Source of the DNA: Candidatus Rifleibacteriota bacterium
Lineage (GTDB): Bacteria > Muiribacteriota > Ozemobacteria > Ozemobacterales > Ozemobacteraceae
Reading direction: 5' to 3'
Assembly (NCBI GenBank): GCA_012520995.1
Contig: JAAYNI010000046.1
Coordinates: 42,650-106,649 of the forward strand
DNA: 64,000 bases
Part shown: piece after piece, positions 1,298-49,890 of the stretch
Layout of the letters: the number at the start of each line of letters is the position of its first letter
Position numbering within the stretch: the stretch's first letter is position 1
The notes under the pieces: model-generated
The model's input: the letters and a program-made list of their open reading frames with translations, nothing else
What the model was told of the DNA's origin: nothing
The model's database searches: none
Translations under genes and position numbers: made by a program

Positions 1298-1314
1298 TAA
1301 ATACAGGATTCAAA

Positions 1315-3912: not shown

Positions 3913-3913
3913 A

Positions 3914-5221: not shown

Positions 5222-5231
5222 GAGCTTCAAG

Positions 5232-5687
5232 ATGGCCTTTGTTTTCAAATTGCAAAAGCTCTTGGAGTTAGCCGAACATGAAGAAGAGCAAGTAAAGTTA
5301 GAGCTGGCGGCAAAGGATGCGGAAATAAAAGCCTTGGAAAAAAAAGATCGCGAAGCAGAACAAAAATACAATGCCACAATTGACAGCAGATACGAACATT
5401 TAAAGAATGGCGACATAATTCAGTTAAATATGTGCACAGCATACCTTGATATTATTACTAAAATTAGGTTACAATATAAAGAGGACTTGGCCGATCTCCA
5501 AGCGCAAAGACAGGAGATTGTCCAACGTCTCACAGAAAAGAGAAAAACAACCAAGACCTACGAAAAGATAAAAGAGAATGAAGAAGACAAATATAAAAAA
5601 CACATGCTCAAAATTGAGCAAAAGCAGTTGGACGAATTTGGAAGCAGGTTACGGACATCAGATCCGGAAGGAGAATACAATGCTTGA
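5232..5687 (+). CDS. fliJ: Flagellar export chaperone FliJ
   Basis: 151-aa coiled-coil protein immediately after fliI with a TAGGAG ribosome-binding site. The N-terminus FKLQKLLELAEHEEEQVKLELA is FliJ-like. Confidence 0.65.
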   Translation: MAFVFKLQKLLELAEHEEEQVKLELAAKDAEIKALEKKDREAEQKYNATIDSRYEHLKNGDIIQLNMCTAYLDIITKIRLQYKEDLADLQAQRQEIVQRLTEKRKTTKTYEKIKENEEDKYKKHMLKIEQKQLDEFGSRLRTSDPEGEYNA

Positions 5688-24924: not shown

Positions 24925-26649
24925 TCAATTTTGCAACAACACAAATTTGTAAGAGTGGGAAACGGTAAAGTCGAATTTATCTGAACGAGCTAAGCTGGAA
25001 AGTTCAAAAGCGTTTTGTTCCGCTTCAAGGTCAACACTGAAAATTATCTGGGTTGAAAGCATATTTTTGTGATAAGCCAAGTGCATAGTCGAATAAAGAG
25101 TAGGATCTATAGAAACCCAACCTCTGTTGTTCTCATAAACTTCCAGCCATTGATGGCCTACCGTGTCATCGGTGCCCAGCATCTCCTCTTTGATTAAGTA
25201 GCCGTTTACAAGCCTTGCGGGCATACCCTTTTTTAAAGCCAGAGCCAAGAAAAGTAAAGCATATTCTGTACAGTCACATTTTCCCGGATTATCAAATATC
25301 CAATCTAGACCGTATCTGGTTCTATTTTCATAGTAAGAGAGCCCTTGATTTACAACCCTGTTTGCATTGATTAAGAAATCGCCTTCAAGGCTGTTTACAT
25401 ATCTATAAAGCATTTCAAGACGTCTGTTTGTCAAATCCACACCGCTTTTCCGGATAATCTCGTTTATGTCAGGAACAGGTGCTTGTTGAGGTTTAAAGAA
25501 AGGTTTTACGCTGATTTTTCTGAGAACTTCTATAGAAAGCTTGGTTCCCCAAGCTGAACGCGGAATATCGACATAAAGGCTTCCGTCCTCTCTGGCTATA
25601 GGTTTCAAAATTGTTTTGCGGTTTCTGGAAATTACCGCAACTTCCATCAACGAGATGCTTTGTCTCTCAGACTCGTTTATTTGAGGCAAAGAACAAGTCA
25701 GCTTCTCCAACTCCGAAGCCATATTTAAAGAAGCATTTAAGGTAGACGTAAATAGATATGTCTTAGGTGTGAGGCTATTAATTATAAGTTCTGTAGACTT
25801 GGCATTGTCACTTTCCGGAAATTTTCTTAGCGCTTTCTGTGCTATCTCTAGCAAACCTTCATGCTTTCCAAGAGAAAATCTGGCTCTGACATAGGCATGA
25901 GCAAGAAAAGGGTCATTTTCTCTAGTCGGGGAAGTTTTTAAAAAAGCCTCAGCCTCATAAAATTTGTTTTTCTCAAAAAGAGCCGAGACAAGAAAAACTG
26001 CCGTCTGAGTATCTTGTGGCATTTTTCTCATATGCCCAAATGCCTGCTCTATGAGAGTTTTTCTGTATTTGCCTGTAGCATAAAGCGAAGCAACAAGGCT
26101 TTGAGTTATTTGTGTGTTATTAGGTTCAAACTTTGCCGCATAATGCAAATATTCCGCTGCACGCTTATAGTTATTAAAACTGTTAAAATAAATTGTAGCT
26201 GCCAACAAAGCCGCCTTGATATTGCGCGGATTAATTGCCAAAAGCCTGAGAGCTATCTCGTCCAAACGCTTTTCAAAGGCGATGTCTTTTACATTTTGAG
26301 TCATTTGGGCCTTCTGAGCCATAACCATCAGATAGTTATTCAAAATTTTTGCATCAAAAGGGTTATAAGCCAAAGCTTCATCAAAAAGCTCAATTGCACT
26401 GTCGAAGTCTTTCGACAGCGACTTGTTTATAGCCTCGTCATTCAAAGTGGCCGCATAGTATTTATTGTCATAGGAAACCTCTTCAAAACCTTCCTGAACT
26501 TCTAAAAAGTTCAAGCCGGAAGATTCAAAAACATCATCACGTGTTGTTTCAGGAGGCAATAAAAAGCTCTTTATATACGAAGTCTCTGCTGACAGCAGTG
26601 AGCAAAATATGAGACCAAGAGCCGTTAGAATGACAATTTTTACTCTCAT
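24925..26649 (-). CDS. Secreted TPR protein with C-terminal transglutaminase-like cysteine-protease core
   Basis: Signal peptide; TPR-like helical repeats; C-terminal GKCDCTEYALLFLALALKKGMPARLVNGY...GHQWLEVY resembles the transglutaminase-like Cys-His-Asp core. Confidence 0.6.
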   Translation of the reverse strand: MRVKIVILTALGLIFCSLLSAETSYIKSFLLPPETTRDDVFESSGLNFLEVQEGFEEVSYDNKYYAATLNDEAINKSLSKDFDSAIELFDEALAYNPFDAKILNNYLMVMAQKAQMTQNVKDIAFEKRLDEIALRLLAINPRNIKAALLAATIYFNSFNNYKRAAEYLHYAAKFEPNNTQITQSLVASLYATGKYRKTLIEQAFGHMRKMPQDTQTAVFLVSALFEKNKFYEAEAFLKTSPTRENDPFLAHAYVRARFSLGKHEGLLEIAQKALRKFPESDNAKSTELIINSLTPKTYLFTSTLNASLNMASELEKLTCSLPQINESERQSISLMEVAVISRNRKTILKPIAREDGSLYVDIPRSAWGTKLSIEVLRKISVKPFFKPQQAPVPDINEIIRKSGVDLTNRRLEMLYRYVNSLEGDFLINANRVVNQGLSYYENRTRYGLDWIFDNPGKCDCTEYALLFLALALKKGMPARLVNGYLIKEEMLGTDDTVGHQWLEVYENNRGWVSIDPTLYSTMHLAYHKNMLSTQIIFSVDLEAEQNAFELSSLARSDKFDFTVSHSYKFVLLQN

Positions 26650-26980: not shown

Positions 26981-27478
26981 TCAGTGTTTTAGCAAATTCG
27001 GAGTAAAGAAAACAGCTCTATCCCAGAAAGTCTCAGAAGATTCGGTAGGGTCATAATAATAGGAAGACAAAAAAACAGTCGTCTTAGCTCCTGAGTTTTT
27101 GATACTGAAGTCCTTAATATTGTTTAATTTTAATGTAGAGTTTCCTTCTGGAATTGTCTTCCTCTCCAAGGTTTTATCATATTCTTTAAATTCATATGAG
27201 TATCCTTTGTCAGGGGAAAGCTTAGAGTAAATCTCCCAAGTTTTTATTGAGGGAACAGTAGAGTATATTATCTTTACAGCTCTGTTCAGATCCTGTTCCA
27301 CCGTAGTCATGACAGTTTTTGAATAGTTCATGCTGTAAAGCTGCTTATGTCCGTCTTGCCAAACGTTCCCCATCAAAGATACCAAGGACAGCAAAGACAA
27401 AAGTATCATGGACAAAACTATAGTAGCAGTCAGAACTTCTGCAAGACTAAAACCTCGGCGAACAAAGCAAATTGTCAT
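26981..27478 (-). CDS. Type IV pilin-like (prepilin N-terminal) protein
   Basis: N-terminus MTICFVRRGFSLAEVLTATIVLSMILLSLL: Gly plus FSLAEVL fits the prepilin-peptidase cleavage and methylation motif. Start chosen at the internal Met. Confidence 0.55.
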   Translation of the reverse strand: MTICFVRRGFSLAEVLTATIVLSMILLSLLSLVSLMGNVWQDGHKQLYSMNYSKTVMTTVEQDLNRAVKIIYSTVPSIKTWEIYSKLSPDKGYSYEFKEYDKTLERKTIPEGNSTLKLNNIKDFSIKNSGAKTTVFLSSYYYDPTESSETFWDRAVFFTPNLLKH

Positions 27479-27527
27479 AGTAAAACTCTCCCTTTCAATT
27501 TTACTCCAAAACAACTCCTTTCCGCAA

Positions 27528-27796: not shown

Positions 27797-29146
27797 ATGG
27801 GCAGACTATTCGGCACAGACGGCATTCGCGGAGTAGCCAATAAATTTCCCTTAGACGGGATAACCGTTTACAGAGTGGCTCAGTTGGCCGCAAAAAGATT
27901 GCTTTCCAACTACAAAAAACGCAACAGACCTTTTTTCATAGGTAAAGATACTAGAATTTCCGGCGGAATATTGGAACATGCTGTAGCAGCCGGAGTAGCC
28001 TCTACGGGGGCTGATGTTCGCTTGCTTGGAGTAGTTCCGACACCGGCAGTGGCATATCTTGTAAAAGAGCTTCAAGGGCTTGGCGGAATAATGATAAGCG
28101 CATCCCACAATCCCTTCCAAGACAACGGCATAAAAATATTCGGTTCTGACGGCTACAAGCTAAACGACGCTATTGAAGAGGCCATCGAAGATGACCTCTT
28201 TTCTAACACGCGGCACGAAACACCAATAGGCGAAAAGGTCGGCACAATCTCTTCAGACGAAAATTCAGCCCAGTTTTGGCTTTCACACGTGCAAAGAGCA
28301 TACGGCGACATACAGCCGTCAAAAAAGCTAAAGATAGCCATAGACTGTGCTAACGGTTCTTTATCTCGCTGGGCTCCAAAGTTTTTTGCTGATTTGGGTT
28401 TCAGCGTTGATGCAATAGGCGTAAACCCCAACGGAACAAACATAAACAAAAATGTCGGCTCAACATCTCTTGAAGCCATACTGAATGTTATGAGCAAAGA
28501 ACACTTCCATATAGGCTTTGCTTTTGACGGTGATGCGGACAGGGTTATAGCTATTTCGAGCGAAGGCGACATTATAGACGGCGATTATATACTGGCCATT
28601 ACAGCCAAATATCTCAAAGACAAAGAGAAATTGCCAGGCAACACAATGGTAACAACAGTTATGGCTAACCTAGGCTTAGATATAGCCATGAAGAACAACA
28701 ATATTAAAGTATTTAAAACCCAAGTAGGCGACAGGTATGTGCTGGAAGAAATGCAAAAGACCCAGTCTATACTAGGCGGCGAACAAAGCGGACACATAAT
28801 ATTGTCAGAACATGCGACCACTGGCGACGGACTTTTGACAGCCTGCATGCTTCTAAGAATAATGCATGAAACAGGTGCCAGCCTTAGAGAATTGAGCGGC
28901 GTTATGAGCAAACTGCCTCAACTTCTTGTAAACATTAAGGTTAAAGACAAGAACTACAAAAACTGTCCCGAAATACTTGAAGTTATCCGAAATACCGAAG
29001 AAAAGCTTGAGGGCAAAGGCAGATTGCTTATAAGACCTTCAGGCACAGAAGATCTTCTGAGGGTTATGGCTGAAGGCCCAGACGAAACGGAAATAAAAGT
29101 TCTGGTTAACGGTATAGCTAAAACCATATCCAAGTATCTTTGCTGA
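27797..29146 (+). CDS. glmM: Phosphoglucosamine mutase
   Basis: GRLFGTDGIRG..., active-site SASHNPFQDNGIKIF, GDGDADR metal-binding loop. Confidence 0.9.
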   Translation: MGRLFGTDGIRGVANKFPLDGITVYRVAQLAAKRLLSNYKKRNRPFFIGKDTRISGGILEHAVAAGVASTGADVRLLGVVPTPAVAYLVKELQGLGGIMISASHNPFQDNGIKIFGSDGYKLNDAIEEAIEDDLFSNTRHETPIGEKVGTISSDENSAQFWLSHVQRAYGDIQPSKKLKIAIDCANGSLSRWAPKFFADLGFSVDAIGVNPNGTNINKNVGSTSLEAILNVMSKEHFHIGFAFDGDADRVIAISSEGDIIDGDYILAITAKYLKDKEKLPGNTMVTTVMANLGLDIAMKNNNIKVFKTQVGDRYVLEEMQKTQSILGGEQSGHIILSEHATTGDGLLTACMLLRIMHETGASLRELSGVMSKLPQLLVNIKVKDKNYKNCPEILEVIRNTEEKLEGKGRLLIRPSGTEDLLRVMAEGPDETEIKVLVNGIAKTISKYLC

Positions 29147-29158
29147 GTTTAATGATCC

Positions 29159-29812
29159 ATGGATAAAAAAAGCCTAATTATAACAGGATTTGTAACAGCT
29201 TTTCTTACACTTCTCTTTTTAATTGGGCTTTTTATCATAGTTCCTGGTCTAGACCAACCTTCGAAAGAAGAAATAGAACATATAGAATCAGTTCTTCAAA
29301 GATACGATGGCATCGCAAAGGCTTTCATAGAAGAAAATCCTAACAGCAGAGAAGCAATCGAATTAAAAGCAACAATTAAAACCTATGAAAGATACGAAAA
29401 GCTCATAAAAGAAGCTGGAATACCTTTGCAGTCGTTGCCTTCAAATTCAAATACTGTCTCTGCAAATACAAATAAAACTTTGTTCGATGAGCCTTTTATC
29501 CCTAGCTCTTCCCATCCCGACTATCTGAAAGCTTTATCTCTCTTCAAGGAACAGAAATATGCGGGAGCCTTGGAGCTCTTCAGCCAAATAATGAAAGAAG
29601 CTCCTGACAGCAAAGAAGCTCTCTATTCTGAATATGCAATAGCTTACATATATTTTCGCACCAAAGACTTCAAAACAGCTCAAAAACTCTTCAAAACCTT
29701 GGCTGAAAAAGATCCATACGGCCACGTAGGTCAAAGCTCTTCGAATGCGGTCAAATATTTGGCAAATCTCGACAAACACGAAGACAACCTGCATTTTCCT
29801 ATAGAAAGATAA
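29159..29812 (+). CDS. Membrane-anchored TPR-like protein (hypothetical)
   Basis: N-terminal TM helix and C-terminal TPR-like helices (ALSLFKEQKYAGALELFSQI...). Confidence 0.45.
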   Translation: MDKKSLIITGFVTAFLTLLFLIGLFIIVPGLDQPSKEEIEHIESVLQRYDGIAKAFIEENPNSREAIELKATIKTYERYEKLIKEAGIPLQSLPSNSNTVSANTNKTLFDEPFIPSSSHPDYLKALSLFKEQKYAGALELFSQIMKEAPDSKEALYSEYAIAYIYFRTKDFKTAQKLFKTLAEKDPYGHVGQSSSNAVKYLANLDKHEDNLHFPIER

Positions 29813-29840
29813 TAAAAGGCGAAATTAAGGAGACTAAACT

Positions 29841-30311
29841 GTGAAGAGACAAGTAAACGCTTTTACACTCCTTGAAGTAATGATAGCCGCCTTCATTTTG
29901 GCAGCAACGCTCATCCCCGTTCTTTCTGTCTTTTCTGCAAGCAACAAGCAAACTGAAAGAAGCGCAATAACTTTAGAAGTAGCCGTAACCGCACAAGACT
30001 TGCTGGATGAAATTCGTCGTTCTAATATTTTGCGAAGTTCCTCTTTACCGATGAAAATAGAACTTCCTTCTGATATGTATCCGCAATTCCCAATATCAGA
30101 AAGAATTGCAAAGAAATATCAAGGCAAAGTTGTGATAACAATTTCAAATCCTGCAGGGCATACAGATCTGAGAGGAAAAAAAGAAGAGGACCTAATAGAG
30201 ATCATGGTTAAAGTAGACTGGACAGAAGGAGAAATGACGCCTTCATACACAGCAAGAGCCTATGTGACCCTGCTGGGTCAGCATTTAATAACCACAACGA
30301 GCGTGCCATAA
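29841..30311 (+). CDS. Prepilin-type pseudopilin/minor pilin
   Basis: GTG start with an AAGGAGA ribosome-binding site. N-terminus MKRQVNAFTLLEVMIAAFILAATLIP has the class III signal FTLLEV. Confidence 0.65.
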   Translation: MKRQVNAFTLLEVMIAAFILAATLIPVLSVFSASNKQTERSAITLEVAVTAQDLLDEIRRSNILRSSSLPMKIELPSDMYPQFPISERIAKKYQGKVVITISNPAGHTDLRGKKEEDLIEIMVKVDWTEGEMTPSYTARAYVTLLGQHLITTTSVP

Positions 30312-30949
30312 TGAAATCAACCCGCATTAAATCAGTAAGTTCCAAACAGTCGGCTTACACTCTTATGGAAGCTTTAATTGCAGTAGCCATCGCTTCCATA
30401 ATAAGCCTTACGATATTTGCCGCACTGCGAACCAGTCTTGCGAATGTCGCTTTAGGACAAAAAAAACTTAGAACAACTGAAAAGATACAGGCTATAACTA
30501 AATCGATTTTTTTCGATCTGAAGCGCACAGGCCTCTTAGCTCACGGATTTAACATTTCAGGAGAGACAAGAGGCAAATTCACTCCTCATAATGTCCTATT
30601 GCTCAAGTTCCCCGAAGAACCCTCAGACAATCTCCAAATGATTAACACATCCCCAGGACAAGGCAAAGGCACAACGACAGTCTACCTTCTCATAGACGAA
30701 CCGAATTCTCAATTGTCTTCATTGGTACGTATAAGCAAATCCGGTCCCATTATTCGCAGAATTACCAAGGTTGCAAACGCAATTAAAGACTTCAGGGTCC
30801 ATGCTGATCCTTACAACAAAAACAAAGTAAGAATCACCATGACAGTTTATGATAGCCTAGAACCAACTAGAAGCGAAAAATTAGATTTCAGCGTTCATCT
30901 GGATTCCGACCTTGTGCGTGCAAAACAGTATATTCTCGTAAAAGGATAA
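30311..30949 (+). CDS. Prepilin-type minor pilin-like protein
   Basis: N-terminus ...SAYTLMEALIAVAIASIISLTIFAAL, with a pilin-like hydrophobic helix after a T-L-M-E-A motif. Start codon abuts the upstream stop. Confidence 0.55.
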   Translation: MKSTRIKSVSSKQSAYTLMEALIAVAIASIISLTIFAALRTSLANVALGQKKLRTTEKIQAITKSIFFDLKRTGLLAHGFNISGETRGKFTPHNVLLLKFPEEPSDNLQMINTSPGQGKGTTTVYLLIDEPNSQLSSLVRISKSGPIIRRITKVANAIKDFRVHADPYNKNKVRITMTVYDSLEPTRSEKLDFSVHLDSDLVRAKQYILVKG

Positions 30950-30951
30950 AC

Positions 30952-31479
30952 ATGCAATATTTCAACAAAAACAAAGGCTATATAATGTTTACAGTGATAA
31001 TGTGCATAGTTTGTCTTGCAATATTTGCAGCCGGTTACTTTTATTATTCTGGAAGCATAAACACCAGAGTCTTTTCTGAAGCCCATAAAATCAAGGCTGT
31101 CAATTACGCCAAAGCAGGTTTGGAGAAAGCAAAGCTTGACATATACAACAGCTACTCCATGGGAATATATGATGTCTCCACAGAAAGCGGCAAGCTGATC
31201 AAGAATCGGGCTGGCTCAAACGAATACAAATTCGAGTTTCCTGACGGCGGATACGAAATAATATCTATTAAGGCACAAACTATGATGGTTCCCGAAAAGC
31301 CTGGCAGCTCCAAAATGGTGGAAGCTCCCGTAGCAGATATTGAGCGCACCTCAAAAGGAGAACCATCTGGCACATACGATATATGGATTATAGAAACTCG
31401 AGGTTATACTAAAAGGCCTTCTGCAAAAATAAAGCTGAGAACTTTATTGAAAATTTACAGGGATAAAAACTTTTTTTAA
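30952..31479 (+). CDS. Small membrane-anchored protein in the pilin operon (PilX-like position)
   Basis: Single N-terminal TM (MFTVIMCIVCLAIFAAGYFYY); co-directional and tightly packed with the pilins. Confidence 0.4.
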   Translation: MQYFNKNKGYIMFTVIMCIVCLAIFAAGYFYYSGSINTRVFSEAHKIKAVNYAKAGLEKAKLDIYNSYSMGIYDVSTESGKLIKNRAGSNEYKFEFPDGGYEIISIKAQTMMVPEKPGSSKMVEAPVADIERTSKGEPSGTYDIWIIETRGYTKRPSAKIKLRTLLKIYRDKNFF

Positions 31480-31505
31480 TTAAAAATATCAGGAGATATC
31501 TCACA

Positions 31506-32801
31506 ATGACATGCTGTACATGGCTGAATAAAAAATACAGCCAACTTTGTCTCTGCGTTGCCTTTTTTTTCATGAGCTCCCCTATGATACTCAATGCCCA
31601 AGCCGTACCTTCTGAACCTCCTTCAAACATAGTGCCCCTGGAAAGTGCCATTTTCACTACTCTTAGACCTTTAAGTGACCTAAACGAGGACGGATACACG
31701 GAACTTTTAGCCGGCGGCGTTGACGGCAACCTGAAATTGATTTCCGTAAATCCCAAGGAAACAGGTGAATACCTAGACTTTCCAAAGTGGCCACAATTTT
31801 TGGATGCTCCCTTAACAGGAGGTATTAAAACTATAGGAAAAGGTCACAAAACAGTCATAGTTGCTACCACATCGGGAGAATCGCAATATTTTTTCAACCG
31901 GAATGGCAGAAACATTTGCAATATGCAATTTCAGAAAACTCCTGGTTCTGAATGGCAAGTATATGAAACCGGAGAAGGCTCAGTCAATATGACCATTCCT
32001 GGTAAAGACCATATACATGTAGTCTCAGTATCCGATGGAAACGTTGCCTGTTTTGAACCGATAAAAGCCAAAGAACCTCCTATCGGAGACTCCATACTGA
32101 TACCCGGAGGACTTTTAGGTTACAAAACAAAAAATGGAAGAGTCTACGTAACCGACATGGAGGGAAATCCTCTAAAAGGCTGGCCAAAGACCACAAGTTC
32201 CAGCAACGACAGTTGGGGTTACAATATGGGCTCAGCAGACGTAGCCGGCGATGGCGGCTCGGTAATTTATACCACTACTGCCAGCAACCAATTTATAATG
32301 TGGGATCTTGAAGGCAATGAACTAAAAAAATTCAACATAAGTTCGCCCGCTTTTCCGGCACCCACTTTTGAAGACGTTGACGGTAATGGAATTACCGATG
32401 TAATAATTGCCCAAAAAAGTGGAGAAGTCATGGTTTGCAACTTAGACGGAAAACCTCTAAAAGGCTGGCCTTACAGGGGTTCCGGTTCAATACTTCACCA
32501 GCCCAAATTCATAGACATAGACGGAGACGGCCACAAAGACTTGGTGTTTGTGACCTCCCGACAAGGAGGACAAGGACGTTTGGTAGCTCTGGATCGTAAC
32601 GGCAAAACTCTATCCGGCTACCCTAAAGATCTTGGACAAACCTATAGCAATCCAGTATTTTCAGATATAAACAATGATGGATATATGGAGATTATCTTGG
32701 CCTCCATCAAGAACGAAGAGCCCCATATACATGTTTTCCCCACAAAGGCAAAAAGCAGAATCAGGATGGTAACTCTAGGACATGAGCTCGTGCTTGAATA
32801 A
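31506..32801 (+). CDS. Secreted FG-GAP-repeat beta-propeller protein
   Basis: Signal peptide. Repeated Ca-binding-like loops DLNEDGYTELLAGG, DVDGNGITDVIIA, DIDGDGHKDLVFV, DINNDGYMEIILA and a recurring PLKGWP motif. AGGAGA ribosome-binding site. Confidence 0.6.
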   Translation: MTCCTWLNKKYSQLCLCVAFFFMSSPMILNAQAVPSEPPSNIVPLESAIFTTLRPLSDLNEDGYTELLAGGVDGNLKLISVNPKETGEYLDFPKWPQFLDAPLTGGIKTIGKGHKTVIVATTSGESQYFFNRNGRNICNMQFQKTPGSEWQVYETGEGSVNMTIPGKDHIHVVSVSDGNVACFEPIKAKEPPIGDSILIPGGLLGYKTKNGRVYVTDMEGNPLKGWPKTTSSSNDSWGYNMGSADVAGDGGSVIYTTTASNQFIMWDLEGNELKKFNISSPAFPAPTFEDVDGNGITDVIIAQKSGEVMVCNLDGKPLKGWPYRGSGSILHQPKFIDIDGDGHKDLVFVTSRQGGQGRLVALDRNGKTLSGYPKDLGQTYSNPVFSDINNDGYMEIILASIKNEEPHIHVFPTKAKSRIRMVTLGHELVLE

Positions 32802-34200
32802 AAAACTTTTAACAATCTGTTTTTTTTTCCTGCTGATATGTTCAGTTCTCTTGGCAAGAGTTGAAGAAACCGCATCATTTCTGAAAGCAGGCCAATTGGC
32901 TTTTCTTCGTGGCGATTATAATGCAGCCGAAATAGAATTTTCAAACATACTTTTAATTGATCCTGAAAATTTTGAAGGCCGTATTTGGCTTGCTAAAGTA
33001 TACTTGGCTCAAAAAAATCTCACAGGTGCTTCAAAACTCCTATCTGAAGCCTCAAAACAAGCTCCGGCTCACTTCATGATTGTAAAGCTTCAAGATGAGC
33101 TCAGAGCTGAAGAAACAGATGAAAGCCTTTCCGGTATTGACCCGATGATGGAAGAGCGGCTCAGCCTTTTAAAAAATGACATTCCTGTCCGCAGATACGG
33201 TTTGGTAATACCCGAACAAAACATTCATATTCCAAGAGAAGAAACAAAAGACGTTCAATCACTTTTAGCAATTTTAAACGACACATACGAAGAGACATCT
33301 CCAATTGAATCTATAGACAATGAAGTTCTCCTAGATAAGCCAAGTGACTTTCAGAACCATTTTTCAATAAGCAAAAGAGAAAGCGGCAATCCATTAGAAA
33401 AAGTATTCGCAACTCTTGAGAGCAAAGGTATGAATGCGGCTCTGGATCTCTATGTCGAAATGGCTATAAACGACCCGAAAACGGGCACTTACTCCGACAG
33501 AGGCTTTTTACAAAGAGCCTCAGCTCTCTATCAGCAAAGAATGCGAGCCAACCCCTACGACTTGGAAGCCCAGTATTATTGCGCAGCCGCTAAATATTTT
33601 GACGGGCTCCATGACGATGCAGGAAAAATCATAAAAATGTTGAATCAGAGACCCTACGAGCCCAGAAAAAAAGAAATAGACTACATATCGAACAAGCTGG
33701 AGAGTTATTTTCGAAGCATAGCATCCTACAACAGACAGCAAGAACAAAGCAGAAGCGCGGCTGAAGCAAAAAAAGCATCTGAGGCAAAAGCAGCTGCAAA
33801 ACCAGATGGACAAGAGAAGTTTTGGAAAAAGCTGGAAGAAAAAAGAAGACTTGAAATCAACGAGCAGACAACAAAAGAGTCTCAATTTCTGCACGATGAC
33901 GGCTTTAAGCTTTATAAACAAGGCAGACTGGATGAAGCTATAAAAAAATACCGGCAAGCCTTGGAAATCAGCCCAAATAATCCGGAATTTAACTATCACT
34001 TGGGATTAGCGCTTTCTGACAAAGCCTTATCAGGAGAGTCCGTTTACTTCACACAAGCTCTGGAAGCTTTTAATAGAGCAGCTTTAGCCGATCCTTCTTC
34101 AAAGTATGCAAAAGATGCAAAGAAAATGGTCAATAATATAGAAGAAATGCAAGCCATATTAGAAGATCCTCATGGAGAAAAATACGATTCAGATTTTTAA
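32782..34200 (+). CDS. Secreted TPR-repeat protein
   Basis: Signal peptide MSSCLNKKLLTICFFFLLICSVLLA; TPR-like repeats at both ends. Confidence 0.55.
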   Translation: MSSCLNKKLLTICFFFLLICSVLLARVEETASFLKAGQLAFLRGDYNAAEIEFSNILLIDPENFEGRIWLAKVYLAQKNLTGASKLLSEASKQAPAHFMIVKLQDELRAEETDESLSGIDPMMEERLSLLKNDIPVRRYGLVIPEQNIHIPREETKDVQSLLAILNDTYEETSPIESIDNEVLLDKPSDFQNHFSISKRESGNPLEKVFATLESKGMNAALDLYVEMAINDPKTGTYSDRGFLQRASALYQQRMRANPYDLEAQYYCAAAKYFDGLHDDAGKIIKMLNQRPYEPRKKEIDYISNKLESYFRSIASYNRQQEQSRSAAEAKKASEAKAAAKPDGQEKFWKKLEEKRRLEINEQTTKESQFLHDDGFKLYKQGRLDEAIKKYRQALEISPNNPEFNYHLGLALSDKALSGESVYFTQALEAFNRAALADPSSKYAKDAKKMVNNIEEMQAILEDPHGEKYDSDF

Positions 34201-34248
34201 TACTAAATGTGATATTTTAAGACTGAAAAGAAGAACGGAGACAAAAAT

Positions 34249-34983
34249 ATGGAAAACATCAATCAATCCGGCATTGAGCTTGCTAATGACTCCTCACTGC
34301 TCCATGGAACCGTAACTGAACTTTTGCCAACGCTTCCATTTGATTTTTTTTCATATTTAAAAAAAGAGTACATAGATGAAGAAGAAGGAATAGATGAAGT
34401 AACTATCAGTTGCGCCTTCAGCCGAATAAATGAACCCGTTGACTGGAACAATATAAAAAGCTTTATAATGATGCCAGAATGGGGAACAACTCCTCTTAGG
34501 CGTTCTTGGATTGTACGAGTGCCCACTTATTACAAAGGCTCAGACAAATTTCTTTTCCACTACTATTTTCAAATCAAATATGCAGACGGCAAAGAAATAT
34601 TAAGTGAAAACTATACTCAGCTGATAACAGCCAAAGAATTCGAATATATAGACCACACATCCAGCCTCACAAATATTACTCTTCACTGGAGCCTGAATGA
34701 CTGGTCTTATCCCCAAGATACTCCGATGGAAGCTGAAGGCATAGATTGGGAAAATGAATGTTCTATCAGCCGTTCACCTTATAAAGCAGGTGACAAACTC
34801 TATCGAGAAGCCAGGCGTTTAAAAATTGAAAAGTTACCTCATCCCAGGCGCTTCAAAACAATCATAGCCGTTCCCTCAAAAGAAACAGTGAACTATTGTT
34901 TCAAGCTGGAAGGTTACAAAGAAGGAGAGCCATTTACCAAATGGGACAACAATGAAGGCAAAAACTTTCTTGTTCGCCTCTGA
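34249..34983 (+). CDS. Hypothetical protein
   Basis: 244 aa with no clear family. The C-terminal ...EPFTKWDNNEGKNFLV is loosely like the end of starch/glycogen-binding modules; that is speculative. Confidence 0.35.
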   Translation: MENINQSGIELANDSSLLHGTVTELLPTLPFDFFSYLKKEYIDEEEGIDEVTISCAFSRINEPVDWNNIKSFIMMPEWGTTPLRRSWIVRVPTYYKGSDKFLFHYYFQIKYADGKEILSENYTQLITAKEFEYIDHTSSLTNITLHWSLNDWSYPQDTPMEAEGIDWENECSISRSPYKAGDKLYREARRLKIEKLPHPRRFKTIIAVPSKETVNYCFKLEGYKEGEPFTKWDNNEGKNFLVRL

Positions 34984-35072
34984 TTTGCCACTAAACATTG
35001 AAAAATATACTCTGACGTTGTATTTTGGTATATTCTTGGACTTTCAACACTATCCACTTAAGGAGCTTTAAC

Positions 35073-36152
35073 ATGACCAAGGTTCTAATGAAAGGCAACG
35101 AAGCCATAGGAGAAGCAGCCATACTTGCGGGTTGCAGGCATTATTTCGGTCACCCGATGCCCCCCCAATCCGAGCTTCTTGCTTATCTAGCCAAGCGACT
35201 CCCCGAAGTAAACGGAGTATTTTTGCAAGCAGAAAACGAAACTGCGGCGATCCATATGACATATGGCGCAGGCAGTGCAGGTGCCAGAGTCATGACATCA
35301 AGTTCCAGCCCAGGAATGAGCCTTTTTCAAGAAGGTATTTCTCATATGGCAGGTGCTGAAATTCCCTGCGTTATAGCAGATATCATGAGAGGCGGTCCAG
35401 GTCTTGGCAATGTCTCCGCTGCACAAGCCGACTACTGGCAAGCAGTCAAATGCGGAGGTCACGGCGACTACAGAACTATAGTTTTTGCGCCGGCATCTGT
35501 TCAAGAAATGATAGATATGACTATAAGTGCTTTTGACTATGCTGACCGTTACAGAAATCCAGTGGTTATTCTTGCGGACGGCGTATTGGCACAGATGATG
35601 GAACCGGTTACTCTGCCGGCTCCGACAGATCATACTCCTGACAGCAAAAAATGGGCCTTAGGCAACAACTTCAAAGAAAAAAAGTCAGGAAACTATTCAA
35701 CTTCCATTTTCAAAGCTAAAGAAGAGCTGGAAGAACACAACTGGGGACTCTACCAAAAATATCAGGTTATTTCCGATCACTTCCGAAAAGACAAACCGGA
35801 ACTGACTTACGAAGAATATCTCTGCGAAGATGCGGACATCATACTGACAGGATATGGAATAATAGCCAGAGTCCTACAGACAGTTGTTGAAAAATGCCGC
35901 AAGAGAGGTATTAAAGCAGGTTTACTCAGACCAAAAACTCTCTGGCCATTCCCAGTTGAAGCTTTCCAGCAATATGCTGAAACAGCTTCAATGTTTTTAG
36001 CAGTAGAAATGTCTTGCGGACAAATGGTGGAAGACGTAAAACTGGCTCTTAACGGAAAAAAACCGGTATACTTCTTCGGCCGTGCAGGCGGTTCTGTCCC
36101 GTCAGACTTCGAAATCTTCAACGAAGTCGACAAATTGGCAGGAAGAAATTGA
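35073..36152 (+). CDS. korA: 2-oxoacid:ferredoxin oxidoreductase alpha subunit
   Basis: Start at the ATG at 35073 (AAGGAG ribosome-binding site). MTSSSSPGMSLFQEGISHMAGAEIPCVIADIMRGGPGLGN is the KorA/PorA signature. Confidence 0.8.
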   Translation: MTKVLMKGNEAIGEAAILAGCRHYFGHPMPPQSELLAYLAKRLPEVNGVFLQAENETAAIHMTYGAGSAGARVMTSSSSPGMSLFQEGISHMAGAEIPCVIADIMRGGPGLGNVSAAQADYWQAVKCGGHGDYRTIVFAPASVQEMIDMTISAFDYADRYRNPVVILADGVLAQMMEPVTLPAPTDHTPDSKKWALGNNFKEKKSGNYSTSIFKAKEELEEHNWGLYQKYQVISDHFRKDKPELTYEEYLCEDADIILTGYGIIARVLQTVVEKCRKRGIKAGLLRPKTLWPFPVEAFQQYAETASMFLAVEMSCGQMVEDVKLALNGKKPVYFFGRAGGSVPSDFEIFNEVDKLAGRN

Positions 36153-36162
36153 GGATATAACA

Positions 36163-36915
36163 ATGGCATACGAAAAAGACAACTCCAAAATTCTCTCAGA
36201 AACGGCTTTACACTGCCAAAACAACGATTATAAAATAATCCACGGAATAATAGTGGATACAATTGAAAAACTTAAACTTGAATCCTCTACTATAGGAGTG
36301 GTTTCAGCTGGTTTTTCTGTTTTCATAAAAGAACCCTATCTACCTGACCTGAGCGTAGCTCCCCAAGGCAGAGCTCCTGCGGTCGCAACAGGCATCAAAC
36401 GCGTCAGACCCAACTGCGTGGTTTTCACATGCCAAGAGGATGGCGACTTGGCCTCCAGCGGTCTCTCTGAAATAATTCATGCCGCCAACAGAGGCGAAAA
36501 TATAACAGCAATATTTATCAATCATGCTACTTATTCAACGGCAGATGATCAAATTCCTCTAGGTGAATCACCAGACGAAAAGCCAAGGCTTCTCACCTGC
36601 TCTTTCGGAGCAGCTGATGCCGCCAATCCTCCGAAAATTCCAGAAATCCTCGCAACCTTGGACAAGCCTGTTTACATCACAAGAGTTGCCCTTAACATCG
36701 AAGATAACGTTGAACAAGCCAAAAAAGCTATTTACAATGCTTTTAAACTGCAAAGCGAAAACAAGGGTTTTTCATTTGTCGAAGTTATTTCTCCCAGAGC
36801 TGCAAATGATAATGATGCCATTATAGAAGAGCAGCTTCAGGAATATCACAAAAAAGTTTTGGAGAAATTCCCCGTCAAAACATTCAAAGACACTTACAAC
36901 GTCGATAAACCTTGA
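36163..36915 (+). CDS. korB: 2-oxoacid:ferredoxin oxidoreductase beta-subunit homologue with divergent TPP-binding motif
   Basis: The backbone aligns to KorB/OorB (GRAPAVATGIKRV...HAANRGENITAIFIN). CPGCG is replaced by HCQNND, GGDGD by CQEDGD, and NNQIYGMTGGQ by NHATYSTADDQ. GAGGA ribosome-binding site. Confidence 0.6.
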   Translation: MAYEKDNSKILSETALHCQNNDYKIIHGIIVDTIEKLKLESSTIGVVSAGFSVFIKEPYLPDLSVAPQGRAPAVATGIKRVRPNCVVFTCQEDGDLASSGLSEIIHAANRGENITAIFINHATYSTADDQIPLGESPDEKPRLLTCSFGAADAANPPKIPEILATLDKPVYITRVALNIEDNVEQAKKAIYNAFKLQSENKGFSFVEVISPRAANDNDAIIEEQLQEYHKKVLEKFPVKTFKDTYNVDKP

Positions 36916-36941
36916 ACCGAGGATAAGGAGAAAGAAAAAGA

Positions 36942-37544
36942 ATGTCAGCAAAAGTAGAAAGAATAATTTTGGCGGGCTTCGGCGGACAAGGCGTACTTTT
37001 CTTAGGAAGGCTATTGGCAGAAGCTGCTTTAAAAGCGGATAAAAATGTCTCTTGGGTACCTTCATACGGTTATGAAATTCATACTCCGACAGCAAATTGT
37101 TCCTTAATTATAGCCGAAAATCAGATTGCCTCTCCTATGATTACGGTTCCGGACAGTGTTATTGCTATGAACACTCCATCCCTGAACAAATTCAGTCAAA
37201 AAATAAAAGGCGGCGGCATGCTGATGTACAACTCATCACTTATAGACAGACAAGAGTTCCGAGACGATATACGCTTAGTTGAAATCCCCGCTACCGATAT
37301 GGCTAACGATTTGGGCGATCCTTCTTTGGCCAGCCTAGTTATGGCAGGAGCCTATGCCAAGTTCAGCAATTTGGTTACCTATGAAGGCGTTGAAGAAGCT
37401 TTAAGAAAACTTTTAGAAAAGCAGCGCATAAAAGAAGATGAAATAAATCTCAACATTGAGGCTTTAAAGCAAGGTTTCAAATATGTTGAAGAAACAAGAT
37501 ACATGAGCGGCAGATATGCTCATGCGGTTTTCAGAGGAATATAA
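36942..37544 (+). CDS. korC: 2-oxoacid:ferredoxin oxidoreductase gamma subunit
   Basis: RIILAGFGGQGVLFLGRLLAEAAL...VSWVPSYGYEIHT matches the gamma-subunit (Pyr-flavodoxin/ferredoxin oxidoreductase domain III) fold. Confidence 0.75.
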   Translation: MSAKVERIILAGFGGQGVLFLGRLLAEAALKADKNVSWVPSYGYEIHTPTANCSLIIAENQIASPMITVPDSVIAMNTPSLNKFSQKIKGGGMLMYNSSLIDRQEFRDDIRLVEIPATDMANDLGDPSLASLVMAGAYAKFSNLVTYEGVEEALRKLLEKQRIKEDEINLNIEALKQGFKYVEETRYMSGRYAHAVFRGI

Positions 37545-45724: not shown

Positions 45725-46491
45725 GCCTCAGATATAATCCTCAATCTTACGAGAAACAGCTCTCAAAATCAGGACTTCTCTCTGACAATAGTGCAGAGAC
45801 CCTTTCCGAAGACCTCAACATCAGAGTACAACAGCTGCTCGGAAAACCTGGGTTCAAGATTCCTAACCCTATAAAAAACTTCACAAATCTTGAACCTCAG
45901 GTTTTTAAAGAGTACGGCAGCGATGCCGTAAGACTCGCGTTGCTTACAGACCATGATAATCCCGAGAGCCTCTATGACTCCGCATATAACAGGCTCAGCC
46001 ATTGGTTTTCTCTTCTCAATATCGAGCAAAAAGCAGCTGAACAAGAGACAGATCTTGAAACAAGCTTCTTGCTCACCGCCCTCATGAGACTTGAAGAACA
46101 AATACTAGAAAGAAACAAACCCCACGCTGTGATTTCAATGGCTGCGAACTTCTTTAACCGACATAAAACCTTGAGCCTCTCTTACAGAACCAGAAAACTT
46201 CTGGGAACCTTGCTTTATCCTTTTGTGCCTGTTTTCGCAATTTCAGAGCTTCTTGATTCTTCCGCTGTGCCTGTTATTAACGAAATATATGATTTTTTTC
46301 CTGAATATCTCTTCACAGAATATAAAATAGAGAAAAGCTCTTGGCAAAAAATAGCTATAAAAAACGACCCGGCCGCTGGTAAAAGCTTTGAAAAAAGTTT
46401 ACTGGACTTGCCAAGACTTCAACCCTTGAGGAAAAATGGCGAGATATTATTTAAAACTACCCAAAGAGGTATCTTGATATGCCTCGCCTGA
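45721..46491 (+). CDS. Hypothetical protein
   Basis: ORF overlaps its neighbours by 4 nt and 13 nt. No recognisable motif. Confidence 0.4.
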   Translation: MSLRYNPQSYEKQLSKSGLLSDNSAETLSEDLNIRVQQLLGKPGFKIPNPIKNFTNLEPQVFKEYGSDAVRLALLTDHDNPESLYDSAYNRLSHWFSLLNIEQKAAEQETDLETSFLLTALMRLEEQILERNKPHAVISMAANFFNRHKTLSLSYRTRKLLGTLLYPFVPVFAISELLDSSAVPVINEIYDFFPEYLFTEYKIEKSSWQKIAIKNDPAAGKSFEKSLLDLPRLQPLRKNGEILFKTTQRGILICLA

Positions 46492-46916
46492 ATTCACAAA
46501 ACTGCAAGCATTTGCGTATTCTTATTTCCTTAGTATTAGCCTTAGGAGCTTTACATCTTTTTATGAAGCCTCCAGTTACACAAGCAAAAGATATTTTCAA
46601 AGAGAGTCTGCAAAAGCTTGATGTAACAATATACAAACAAGGAAAAAAAATTGCGGTACAATCTGTAACTCAGTCTTACCAAACAGCCTCGCCCGAACTA
46701 ATCACTTTTAATGACGCAACCTATTCGGAATTAACAGCCTGTAAATATATTTCTCCTGCAATAGCCGATCAGATCATAAAAGAACGAAAGAAACGTCCTT
46801 TTGATGATTGGGATGATTTTTCAAAAAGAATCAAAGGCATGGGAAAAGAAAAAATCTCATACTATAAAACAATAGGTCTAAAAATAAACAGAGAGCAAAA
46901 ACTTGAGACCCCCTAA
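46479..46916 (+). CDS. comEA: ComEA-like helix-hairpin-helix DNA-binding protein
   Basis: Signal/TM segment plus C-terminal ...ITFNDATYSELTACKYISPAIADQIIKERKKRPFDDWDDFSKRIKGMGKEKI, which resembles the ComEA HhH domain. It directly precedes comEC. Confidence 0.5.
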   Translation: MPRLNSQNCKHLRILISLVLALGALHLFMKPPVTQAKDIFKESLQKLDVTIYKQGKKIAVQSVTQSYQTASPELITFNDATYSELTACKYISPAIADQIIKERKKRPFDDWDDFSKRIKGMGKEKISYYKTIGLKINREQKLETP

Positions 46917-49077
46917 GAATGTTGTCAAAACCCTGAAACTCGACACTGTGACTCTCTTCACAGCTCTTTTTATTTCAGGCCTCCTTGTATCTTCAATTTT
47001 CCCTACTGAGTATGCCCTCCTCTGGCTTGCAGCTTCAATTCTTTGCTTTGCGGCATCTTTCAAAGCAAAGAATAAAAAAGCTTTAATATCTTTGCTTGCT
47101 GCAGCTGCCATTTTAGCCTCCATGTTTTATGCTGCAGTCAAATTTACTCCAAGCTTAGCCACAAAAGATCTTCAAACCCTTGAGGGAACAAAAGGGGAAA
47201 TCACAGGCATATTTTCAGGTTCCATAAAAAAGCTGAAGGACGGCTCATGCTCATTTCTTTTACGTGAATCCTATTACAGAACAGGTGAAAGGCTCTTAAG
47301 TCTTCCTATGCCAATAAGATGTAAAGCTCCAGCATCTGCCTGCCACATAGTTTCAGACAGTAAAGTCACCTTAACAGGCTATATGGAGGCATTGCCAAAG
47401 AGCAACCGAGTCCGTTTTGAAGCTGAAAATTGCAAGCTGGGAGAAAAAATTATAAAGTCCCATGTTTTCGCCTATTTTGATACACTTAGAAACAAAATAA
47501 TCACAAAGCTTCAGAGCATTTTAAAACCCGAACATGCTTCTTTCATATCTGCCATAATATTTGGCGAAACTTCATTTTTGGAAAACAACGAACTCTATCG
47601 CAAAACGGGAATCACTCATTTAATGGCTGTCTCTGGTCAACATTTAATGATCTTGGCTTTATTTTTGACTGCGATTCTCTACAAAACAGGAGTTCCCCCT
47701 CTTTCCAGAATCATATTCGTATCTGTATGCCTCTTGTTTTATGCGTTATTAACGGCAGGTTCACCATCGGTTTGGAGAGCCTTGCTCATGTATGTTTTCG
47801 TAGCCTTGACAGCCTATTTGGATGCGGAACACGTGCCAACCAGAGCAATTTCAATAGCCGCCCTGCTTATTTTGCTTTATAACCCTGCAAATCTGTACAG
47901 CCCTGCCTTTGTGCTCAGCTTCATAGCAGTGTTGTCTATAATATTTTTAAGAAAGCCTCTTGAAAAACTATTTTCCAAGCTCCGCCTGCCCCAATCAGTC
48001 AACCGATACTTGGCTGCGAGTACTGCCGCAAACATAGGCACTTTACCAGCTTCAGCCTGTTTATTTGGCTCGCTGCCCATTTCAGGTCTCATTGTAAACC
48101 CGCTTATTCTCTGGATATTTGCATATATATTCCCAATGTCTTTTACAATAGCCATTCTAGCTCTTATATCGCCAGAATTCGCCTTAAAATTCGTTCCCTT
48201 TCTCTCACTTGTCTTAGATGGAGTGACAATATTTTTGGAGTTTTTTGAAAAAAACTTGGGTCTATATTTTGAGTTCAACAAAATCTCTCCCTTCATAGCC
48301 TCCTTGCTGTATGCGATATTATTTGCCGCTGCAGCTTATTTCAACAGAAAAGAAGCAGAAACAGCAAAAGAAACTGCCAACTCTCTTGAAACAATCCGAA
48401 AAAAACGTTCTCAGCGACAAAGACAAAATCGTATTGAACAAGAGACTCAAAGTGAAAAAGAAGAACCAAAAGCTATAAAAGTCCCTCCTAAAAGGAAAGC
48501 CTTGGAAAACAGAAATTTATTGCGCGAAATAGATAATAGACTGATGCAACTTCCAAGACTTCCTGTTAAAGGCTCAGAATTGAAAATACATCCTAAGCTT
48601 GATCCAAAGCTCCTTCAAATAAACGCACAAAACCTTTACCATCGTGTCATGGAAGCTGACTCAAAACTATACATGGAAAGTCCTGACAGACTTTTAGAAT
48701 CTTGCACATCTCTTTTAGGAATAGTTTCCATGGAACTTCTTTCAAGAGTTTCGAGACTTTCCTCCAAGCCCAATTTTTCTCCATCTGATATAAAAATTAA
48801 GTTTCGCGTGGAACACAGAGAATTAGCTATGGCAGCAATTACTGACAGCATATTGGCTCCAGCCTTCATAATAGAAGTTCCTGACGAAAAATTTAAAATA
48901 ATGCTCTCAGAACTCCAAGGATTGTTCAATAAAGCAAGCGACCTTCTTGAAGGCCTTCTCTCGCCAACAGATTTATCAAAACTCCAAAAAGATTATGAAC
49001 TGCTGCGCAGCGAGCTTTTTTCTTGGTGCAGCGACTTTATAACTCTAGATCTGAATCAAAAACACAAAAAACCTTAA
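46903..49077 (+). CDS. comEC: ComEC/Rec2-family DNA-uptake channel protein lacking the metallo-beta-lactamase domain
   Basis: Competence-domain signature TGITHLMAVSGQHLMILALFL and a multi-TM core. The C-terminal ~240 aa are charged and helical, with no HxHxDH motif. The only start codon I see is the TTG at 46903, which is uncertain. Confidence 0.7.
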   Translation: MRPPKNVVKTLKLDTVTLFTALFISGLLVSSIFPTEYALLWLAASILCFAASFKAKNKKALISLLAAAAILASMFYAAVKFTPSLATKDLQTLEGTKGEITGIFSGSIKKLKDGSCSFLLRESYYRTGERLLSLPMPIRCKAPASACHIVSDSKVTLTGYMEALPKSNRVRFEAENCKLGEKIIKSHVFAYFDTLRNKIITKLQSILKPEHASFISAIIFGETSFLENNELYRKTGITHLMAVSGQHLMILALFLTAILYKTGVPPLSRIIFVSVCLLFYALLTAGSPSVWRALLMYVFVALTAYLDAEHVPTRAISIAALLILLYNPANLYSPAFVLSFIAVLSIIFLRKPLEKLFSKLRLPQSVNRYLAASTAANIGTLPASACLFGSLPISGLIVNPLILWIFAYIFPMSFTIAILALISPEFALKFVPFLSLVLDGVTIFLEFFEKNLGLYFEFNKISPFIASLLYAILFAAAAYFNRKEAETAKETANSLETIRKKRSQRQRQNRIEQETQSEKEEPKAIKVPPKRKALENRNLLREIDNRLMQLPRLPVKGSELKIHPKLDPKLLQINAQNLYHRVMEADSKLYMESPDRLLESCTSLLGIVSMELLSRVSRLSSKPNFSPSDIKIKFRVEHRELAMAAITDSILAPAFIIEVPDEKFKIMLSELQGLFNKASDLLEGLLSPTDLSKLQKDYELLRSELFSWCSDFITLDLNQKHKKP

Positions 49078-49430: not shown

Positions 49431-49889
49431 ATGATATCTCGTATAAAAAATGCCTATACTCTTCCAGAGCTTCTGATTACTGTTTTGCTGCTGGCAATAC
49501 TGCTATCCTTGGGCATTGTTTTTTCCTCAATAATGGCAAAAGGGCAAAAAAACAAGAGTTATGCAGTCGCTCTAGCTTTTGCTCAGCAAGCCATAGAGTT
49601 GGCAAGAGGCGCTCCCTTTGAAATCTTAAGTTCATCTGATGCTGGTGAAGCCAGTGTTGAATATGATCTGAATAACAAATCCAGCGACAATGATTTGCTT
49701 ATTCCTACTTTAGAAAACGGTGAAGCTGTTTATACCAGAACAGTGAAAATAAGAGACATAAAAACAAAAGATGACCCTGACAGTAACGCTGGCTTGAAAC
49801 ATATCAGCGTAAAAGTTGAATGGATCTCCCCTGAAAATAACAAGCCTGATACTCTTGAAATTAACTCGCTGATAGCCAATATCAACTAA
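49431..49889 (+). CDS. Prepilin-type pseudopilin/minor pilin
   Basis: N-terminus MISRIKNAYTLPELLITVLLLAILLSLGIV. Confidence 0.65.
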   Translation: MISRIKNAYTLPELLITVLLLAILLSLGIVFSSIMAKGQKNKSYAVALAFAQQAIELARGAPFEILSSSDAGEASVEYDLNNKSSDNDLLIPTLENGEAVYTRTVKIRDIKTKDDPDSNAGLKHISVKVEWISPENNKPDTLEINSLIANIN

Positions 49890-49890
49890 T

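Follow-up and report, generated by a model that had tools for sequence, protein, structure and literature searches.

Introduction

In type IVa pili, the roles of plug, adhesin and mechanosensor are assigned to PilY1 (PilC). In P. aeruginosa, Neisseria and Myxococcus, it is encoded in the fimU-pilV-pilW-pilX-pilY1 operon, a stand-alone operon that lies apart from the genes of the pilus machine. To our knowledge, most phyla do not have PilY1. Here we analyze a locus of a Candidatus Rifleibacteriota bacterium in which three pilin-like genes (A, B and C) are followed by the gene of a secreted propeller protein (P), at positions 29841-32801 of a 64,000-nucleotide stretch of contig JAAYNI010000046.1 (hereafter the window). 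We suggest that A-B-C-P encodes the priming or tip complex of a type IV filament, with a propeller other than PilY1 docked on a PilX-like subunit, and we give this reading a probability of roughly one half. Three candidate phyla have kept the gene set together, and P may thus be a new replacement for the tip protein PilY1.

The minor pilin PilX stabilizes PilY1, and PilY1 is dependent on PilX (PMC7541494). Complementation of a beta-strand between the two proteins has been predicted in several species (PMC7541494, PMC13190605), and in Myxococcota pilX-pilY1 pairs persist with the other minor pilins unlinked (PMC13190605). The capping subunits PilX and GspK are recognized by a prepilin-like leader that has no Glu5 (PMC7541494; bioRxiv 10.64898/2026.02.12.705559). 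In cyanobacteria, Thermus and Saccharibacteria, bulky PilX domains have been proposed to replace PilY1 (PMC11623550; bioRxiv 10.64898/2026.02.12.705559). For example, PilX2 of Saccharibacteria has an RCC1 seven-bladed propeller fused to the pilin (PMC11623550), and beta-solenoid PilX/ComZ proteins are found in cyanobacteria and Thermus (bioRxiv 10.64898/2026.02.12.705559). Our search of the literature brought up no paper that connects FG-GAP propellers with minor pilins or PilY1, and nothing relevant on the pili of Riflebacteria.

Organization of the locus

The locus is a six-gene operon with the order TPR-A-B-C-P-TPR (TPR, tetratricopeptide repeat), of which A-B-C-P is the conserved core. The genes are as follows.

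27797-29146, + strand: glmM, at the head of a close-packed run of + strand genes
29159-29812, + strand: TPRu, upstream TPR protein with an N-terminal membrane anchor (217 aa; Pfam TPR_19, E 1.3e-8)
29841-30311, + strand: minor pilin A (156 aa; GTG start; AAGGAG ribosome-binding site 5' of the gene)
30311-30949, + strand: minor pilin B (212 aa; 1-nt overlap with gene A, sharing a base of its stop codon)
30952-31479, + strand: protein C (175 aa; 2-nt gap after B)
31506-32801, + strand: propeller P (431 aa; 26-nt gap after C; AGGAG ribosome-binding site)
32782-34200, + strand: TPRd, downstream TPR protein with an N-terminal signal or anchor (472 aa; TPR_19, E 2.2e-17; TPR_11, E 5.9e-15)

An earlier note on this DNA had described two prepilins, a small transmembrane (TM) protein and a secreted 431-aa protein at 29841-32801. 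All four open reading frames (ORFs) are present on the + strand with exactly the coordinates that it gave, and the PF07963 matches and the signal peptide agree with its description. The four genes do form one unit, but the limits drawn around the module were too narrow, since the two flanking TPR genes belong to it too. TPRu is the first gene of the close-packed set (12 nt 3' of glmM and 28 nt 5' of gene A), and TPRd overlaps the P gene by 20 nt. In Riflebacteria loci an orthologue of TPRu stands 5' of gene A (in L060 and L061 the two genes overlap by 4 nt), and TPRd stands 3' of P. In other lineages the place of TPRd is taken by an M48 peptidase, DUF2344, alpha-2-macroglobulin or a histidine kinase. 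A scan for promoters and terminators gave counts at shuffle level and did not define the operon boundaries. The next gene, 34249-34983 (+), encodes a 244-aa protein with a weak CBM53/CBM21-like match, and it always follows TPRd in Riflebacteria.

Three pilin-like proteins

A and B are of the prepilin type, each with a class III leader and Glu5. Both pass PF07963, with 21.5 bits for A and 23.1 bits for B against a curated Pfam cut-off of 21.2. Their leaders read NA/FTLLE(VMIA) in A and SA/YTLME(ALIA) in B (the slash stands between positions -1 and +1), so that Ala replaces Gly at -1 in both and Tyr is found at +1 in B. The margin over the cut-off is narrow because the window copies are atypical in having Ala at -1; the orthologues of A and B in related loci have the canonical G/FTL[IV]E. 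In family A the motif reads [GA]/F[TS]L[IV]E and 21 of 22 members have Glu5; the canonical form is found in 22 of 24 orthologues of B.

Beyond the leader, family A matches the PilV model TIGR02523 (five of five members, best E 1e-7) and the XpsI/GspI models (five of five, best XpsI 3.7e-6), in each case below the curated cut-offs. Family B gives weak matches to PRK10557 (best 2.1e-5), ComGF, HpsC and the Verru_Chthon cassette protein C, all of which are under the curated cut-offs as well. TIGR02532 is matched by 3/5 members of A and 4/6 members of B. Even the best matches fall far short of the curated cut-offs and lie mainly in the N-terminal third, and an equivalog-level match to the PilV/PilW/PilX or GspI/J/K models was not reached. 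Sequence-profile searches of the PDB with A and B matched pilin N-terminal helices and nothing further. Protein B is 26% identical to its L001 orthologue over the full length. Judged by sequence, A is best read as PilV/GspI-like, and B as PilW/GspJ-like in size.

The third protein begins with NKNKG/YIMFTVIM, followed by a conserved E-A-x-[KR]-I-K-A-x-N-x-A-x-A motif, and it has a single N-terminal hydrophobic helix. Searches of the domain libraries with the window copy gave no family match. Of 30 members of the C family (156-187 aa), 26 begin the hydrophobic helix with [KR][KRQ]G/F[IV]A, and 28 have no Glu5. Matches to PilX_N (PF14341; 1/8 members, E 0.17) and ComGG (1/8, 0.041) are not significant. 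From its N-terminus and the position of its gene, C is best read as a minor pilin of the PilX/GspK type that lacks Glu5. The TM anchor described in the earlier note is there, but the plain TM label calls for amendment, as the N-terminus [KR]xG/F[IV] without Glu5 is of the PilX/GspK type. With this assignment, the analogy to PilV, PilW and PilX is stronger than that note put it.

A predicted eight-bladed propeller

P matches FG-GAP_3/VCBS (PF13517; E 2.4e-15, 57.3 bits, cut-off 26.9) and FG-GAP (PF01839; E 2.6e-8, 34 bits, cut-off 22.1). The following features can be placed in it.

31506-31604, + strand: signal peptide, residues 1-33, ...ILNAQA/VP (read from the sequence; a helix in the AlphaFold2 model)
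32373-32690, + strand: best-conserved blades, with DxDxDGxxD/E loops at residues 290, 337 and 387 and GxxLxG[WY]P at 315 and 366
32727-32798, + strand: C-terminal tail with the family motif h-K-h-A-V-L-G-x-E-h-x-[FY], kept in nearly all full-length orthologues

An N-terminal hydrophobic leader is present in all P orthologues. FG-GAP-type Ca-binding loops and PLKGWP repeats had been noticed earlier, and the motif scan bears this out with four DxDxDG loops (residues 58, 290, 337 and 387), a further, degenerate loop at 245, and GxxLxG[WY]P at three places (220, 315 and 366). The invariant columns in the alignment of 11 P sequences are D290, G295, D337, G340-G342, D387 and G392. The structure prediction that the earlier note had proposed for the 431-aa protein was made with AlphaFold2 from the 11-orthologue alignment, and it gives a propeller with eight four-stranded blades over residues ~48-418 (predicted local distance difference test (pLDDT) 75, predicted template modelling score (pTM) 0.74). 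The best-conserved blade region also has the highest pLDDT, 86-94. P is thus predicted to be an eight-bladed FG-GAP/VCBS propeller with four to five Ca-type loops.

The predicted fold resembles BamB, YxaL and Bap1, and not the seven-bladed propellers of integrin or PilY1. Identity to the eight-bladed propellers of BamB, Bacillus YxaL and Vibrio cholerae Bap1/RbmC is 12-15%; the designed proteins Cake8, Bagel8 and Ika8 are also named among the folds compared with the model. P differs from BamB, a lipoprotein of the BAM complex with a PQQ-like propeller, in that no lipobox Cys of the BamB type is found in it, and from Bap1 in that the beta-prism/lectin insert is absent. None of BamB, YxaL and Bap1/RbmC is encoded with pilins.

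By all tests applied, P falls outside the PilY1 family. The Pfam scan gave no match in P to PF05567, the C-terminal propeller domain of PilY1, and P has eight regular FG-GAP/VCBS blades where PilY1 has a modified seven-bladed propeller (PDB 3HX6). This agrees with the earlier description of the propeller as unrelated to that of PilY1. In addition, P has only 431 aa and is without the variable N-terminal adhesin domain (vWA/DUF4114) of PilY1. It does share with PilY1-type proteins a type I signal peptide, DxDxDG-type sites with putative Ca binding, and a gene 3' of a pilX-like gene. In public annotations the P family is called hypothetical, VCBS/FG-GAP repeat or, once, BamB, and P of the window is 100% identical to an NCBI "hypothetical protein" from a Candidatus Riflebacteria metagenome-assembled genome.

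Residues 420-431 have pLDDT <50, and the last ~12 residues are unplaced in the monomer model. This tail looks like an unpaired strand and is a candidate for docking on C. In the window copy it ends in ...LGHELVLE, without the terminal aromatic residue, and is the least typical of the family.

Linkage of the propeller to the pilins in other genomes

The P family was gathered by an exhaustive HMMER search of 1.84 billion representatives. Word-indexed searches were nearly blind: P found one orthologue, B found only itself, and the 11-sequence profile added two more. The HMMER search returned many thousands of generic FG-GAP proteins, of which ~10 clusters are stand-alone full-length orthologues of 404-453 aa. 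Orthologues of P are therefore rare, and the named ones belong to Riflebacteria, Wallbacteria and Muiribacteriota. P0160 (421 aa, L057) was considered as an orthologue and rejected; its neighborhood is of archaeal type, without pilins.

Linkage was approached in three ways: from the P orthologues (11 loci), from the C-family motif independently of P (20 metagenome loci), and from a control of generic FG-GAP proteins. The loci of the P orthologues, together with further related loci, have these gene orders.

L001, L059, L060: glmM-TPR-A-B-C-P-TPR
L061, L086: TPR-A-B-C-P, then DUF2344
L065 (Muiribacteriota): A-B-C-P-M48 peptidase
L054: B-C-P-TPR
L063: C-P-alpha-2-macroglobulin
L062, L064 (Wallbacteria): metallo-beta-lactamase-fold gene-C-P-histidine kinase
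L007 (Wallbacteria): complete A-B-C-P-M48 cassette

The metagenome scan, with four C sequences as query, gave TPR-A-B-C-P-TPR in its 20 loci wherever the DNA reaches. In each of the ~29 related loci, wherever the DNA is long enough, the P gene comes after that of the PilX-like protein. At 50% identity, the 28 distinct sequences of the C family fall into eight lineages, and P comes after C in 8/8. A and B stand directly upstream of C-P in six of these lineages; they are not adjacent in one, and a contig end is reached in one. In L064, further prepilin-like genes are found 1.7-5 kb away on the opposite strand. The C-P pair is broken in one place seen, L081, where a 348-aa ORF without a Pfam match (4492-5535) lies between C and P.

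The control consists of 53 loci (686 kb) from a scan with a two-sequence propeller alignment that picked the generic FG-GAP motif IDIDGD. It holds 52 non-orthologous loci from many phyla, with no Riflebacteria, and one true orthologue, L007. Matches to A, B or C, or any prepilin motif, were found in one of the 53 loci, which is L007. The earlier note had held that a propeller mostly unlinked to pilins would speak against its idea; the propeller is linked to them in all related loci, and 52 of the 53 generic controls are without pilins.

These data bear on the explanation that the propeller and the pilin-like genes are adjacent merely through conserved gene order among related genomes and are not connected in function. 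For this speaks that glmM, the pyruvate/2-oxoacid:ferredoxin oxidoreductase (POR) and the 244-aa protein are also syntenic in most loci, so operon conservation within Riflebacteria alone is weak evidence and part of the linkage is shared ancestry. The weight of the linkage argument therefore lies on L061/L086, L065, L007, L063 and L064. A-B-C-P is kept in Muiribacteriota, Wallbacteria and the L061/L086 lineage with entirely different flanks; the flanks of A-B-C-P differ in L061/L086, L065 and L007, and those of C-P differ in L064. In addition, the genes overlap or abut, whereas the generic FG-GAP loci other than L007 have no pilin neighbors. Retention across phyla largely refutes mere gene order as the explanation, and we consider it highly improbable.

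In L063 and L065, C and P have a start/stop overlap of 4 nt, and in L064 they are spaced by 0 nt. This arrangement suggests coupled translation of a stoichiometric pair. This is also relevant to a second alternative, in which A-B-C would be the GspI-J-K-type tip of a pseudopilus like that of the type II secretion system (T2SS) and P its dedicated cargo, released to act, like Bap1/RbmC, as a Ca-binding adhesin of the matrix or the surface. The likeness to GspI-GspJ-GspK is that three genes are consecutive, the last is without Glu5, and A matches the GspI/XpsI models; the GspI-J-K tip is also thought to touch a periplasmic globular protein. C, however, is small, about half the size of GspK, without the large GspK alpha-domain and without a T2SSK match. 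The cassette lies outside a gsp operon and has its own propeller gene: no gspC-M genes are nearby in the 64-kb window, whereas Gsp pseudopilin genes are normally within gsp operons. A stand-alone operon of V, W, X and a partner is the pattern of type IV pili, and the strict 1:1 adjacency of C and P with their start/stop overlap suggests a stoichiometric complex rather than the handling of cargo. We regard the pseudopilus with a released cargo as unlikely.

Divergence of the cassette

The window (27797-37544) was compared with the related Riflebacteria loci L067, L071, L072, L075, L076, L078, L081 and L082. The identities to the window are as follows.

GlmM: 68-73%
POR: ~76%
244-aa protein: 44-52%
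A: 30-32%
B: 22-28%
C: 30-33%
P: 29-31%
TPR proteins: 28-36%

Across these pairs of genomes, identity is thus 22-36% for the six cassette proteins, as against 44-76% for the flanks. Fast divergence is usual for surface-exposed pilus tip proteins and unusual for housekeeping assembly factors.

This rate has to be set against a further explanation, in which P would be a BamB-like periplasmic scaffold. With TPR partners (BamD/BepA/pilotin-like) or M48 partners, it would insert or quality-control an outer-membrane component such as a secretin; the pseudopilins would be clients or neighbors, and P would stay in the periplasm. The fold match to BamB is in favor of such a scaffold, as are the M48 genes 3' of P in two phyla. 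Nevertheless, P has no lipobox, the downstream partner varies between lineages, and the proteins evolve fast, so we judge a periplasmic scaffold quite unlikely. A Tol-Pal system (YbgF TPR protein plus TolB propeller) was also considered and rejected, since the prepilin motifs of A and B are clear and TolQRA-like genes are absent.

The M48 metallopeptidase genes (L007, 5159-6556; L065, 3175-3921) lie directly 3' of P, where Riflebacteria have TPR. BepA-type proteins join M48 and TPR. The M48 and TPR proteins may be alternative accessory factors.

A model for a proposed tip complex

The gene order, the translational coupling, the fast rate and the analogy with PilX-PilY1 suggest a role for P at the tip or as an adhesin, and from them we infer all the physical steps of the following model. 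Prepilin peptidase would cleave A, B and C, which would assemble in the inner membrane as a trimer like GspI-J-K or PilV-W-X, with the Glu5-less C on top. P would be exported by Sec to the periplasm and would dock on C, possibly via its conserved C-terminal strand, in parallel to the strand complementation predicted for PilX-PilY1. The major pilin polymerizing beneath would lift the complex to the tip of the filament, whether this is a type IV pilus or a pseudopilus related to it. At the tip, P would plug the filament and, dependent on Ca, serve as an adhesin or receptor. Its likeness to PilY1/PilC would be one of function, without homology. The TPR proteins would be accessory or stabilizing factors specific to Riflebacteria.

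The cassette is like the fimU-pilVWX-pilY1 operon in several respects. In addition to standing alone, it has the order V-like, W-like, Glu5-less X-like and then a propeller apparently exported by Sec, with one or more DxDxDG-type Ca sites; the X-partner pair is the most tightly linked, and divergence is fast. The C-P pair is retained in L062/L064, where A and B are not adjacent. This parallels the pilX-pilY1 pairs of Myxococcota, and we count it in favor of a tip complex. The parallel that the earlier note drew with PilV/W/X and a tip protein stands as to the minor-pilin likeness and the V-W-X-Y1 gene order, while here the third protein is re-read as a Glu5-less minor pilin and the propeller is predicted to have eight blades. 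The cassette differs from the known operon in its flanking TPR genes and in its hosts, which are Riflebacteria, Wallbacteria and Muiribacteriota. It lacks three defining features of the type IVa pilus set, namely the PilY1 domain, four minor pilins and equivalog-level matches. It is not a Gsp operon either.

The cassette can also be compared with PilX2, ComZ and cyanobacterial PilX, in which a bulky beta-rich module goes with a Glu5-less capping pilin, PilY1 is absent, and a function as plug or adhesin has been proposed. In those proteins the bulky domain is within the PilX polypeptide, whereas P appears to be a separate Sec-exported protein, as PilY1 is. The predicted eight-bladed FG-GAP/VCBS fold of P is a further difference.

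Several points weigh against a tip complex. No pilus or T2SS ATPase, platform protein, secretin, prepilin peptidase or major pilin is found among the ORFs scanned in the 64-kb window, and a fourth minor pilin of the GspH/FimU type is absent from the cassette in every lineage examined, where there are three pilin-like genes only. As the family matches are insignificant, the pilin identity of C leans on its N-terminus and position; comparison of the C family with T2SSK (PF03934/PF21687) and with solved PDB structures gave no meaningful match. The window copies are the least canonical of their families, with Ala at -1 in A and B, Tyr at +1 in B and no terminal aromatic residue in P. Most of the supporting loci are those of Riflebacteria in which glmM, POR and the 244-aa gene are syntenic too. 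The putative contacts A-B-C and C-P are deduced from the genes. Finally, the nearest solved folds of P include BamB and an M48 peptidase is 3' of P in two phyla, so that a role in envelope biogenesis fits as well.

A second pilin-like set and the remainder of the window

A second pilin-like triad (49431-52886, + strand) is located directly after comEA and comEC.

46479-46916, + strand: comEA-like gene
46903-49077, + strand: comEC
49431-49889, + strand: prepilin with NA/YTLPE
49891-50640, + strand: prepilin with RA/FTLTE and weak PRK10557/GspJ matches
50637-52886, + strand: 749-aa protein with a PilX/GspK-like N-terminus lacking Glu5 and no domain match

By analogy with Thermus ComZ or cyanobacterial PilX, this triad may be the "bulky PilX" set of a competence pilus. 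Cyanobacteria have two specialized core sets of minor pilins (bioRxiv 10.64898/2026.02.12.705559). The cassette and the second triad resemble this two-set layout, in which a bulky, competence-linked PilX contrasts with a small PilX and a separate tip protein. Other large PilX-like genes are found in L059 (648 aa) and L064 (429 and 469 aa).

A broader and more tentative proposal, which in our view falls somewhat short of even odds, is that Riflebacteria, Wallbacteria and Muiribacteriota would have a so far unrecognized class of type IV filament tip complexes independent of PilY1, in which a small Glu5-less PilX-like pilin is capped, via a conserved, aromatic-ended C-terminal strand, by a separate Sec-exported eight-bladed FG-GAP/VCBS propeller with Ca loops. 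Such a class would be convergent with PilX-PilY1 and would exist, within one genome, beside a "bulky-PilX" set near comEA/comEC.

A lone prepilin-like gene is located at 26981-27514 (-), divergent and upstream of glmM, with the leader RRG/FSLAE and a ComGF match (E 9e-6) over nearly the whole model. Beside it, at 24925-26649 (-), is the gene of a secreted protein with TPR and a transglutaminase core. Neither gene shows synteny in the related Riflebacteria loci. At 55744-58365 (+), an 873-aa secreted protein without a Pfam match has about five tandem repeats of ~130 aa (…GTWHMIQLKEYHDSEP…LWL[KQ][DN]R…) and a repetitive C-terminal region rich in Thr, Lys and Gly. A flagellar block on the + strand (221-5221) comprises the C-terminal part of fliF, fliG, fliH and fliI; the organism thus probably has both flagella and pili. 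The other genes of the window have housekeeping functions, including NAD kinase, PrmA, POR, ligA, comEC and mnmG.

Implications

If the link between the pilins and the propeller is not physical, the locus would be an ordinary minor-pilin operon beside a common repeat protein. If the tip complex proposed here is real, three uncultured phyla would have a third solution, next to PilY1 and the bulky PilX domains: a separate, non-homologous propeller tied to a PilX-like gene. Capping pilins and beta-propellers would then have been paired more than once in evolution, and a set of proteins now called "hypothetical" or "VCBS repeat" would gain a function. It would also provide a handle on the surface attachment of Riflebacteria-type organisms in digesters and aquifers.

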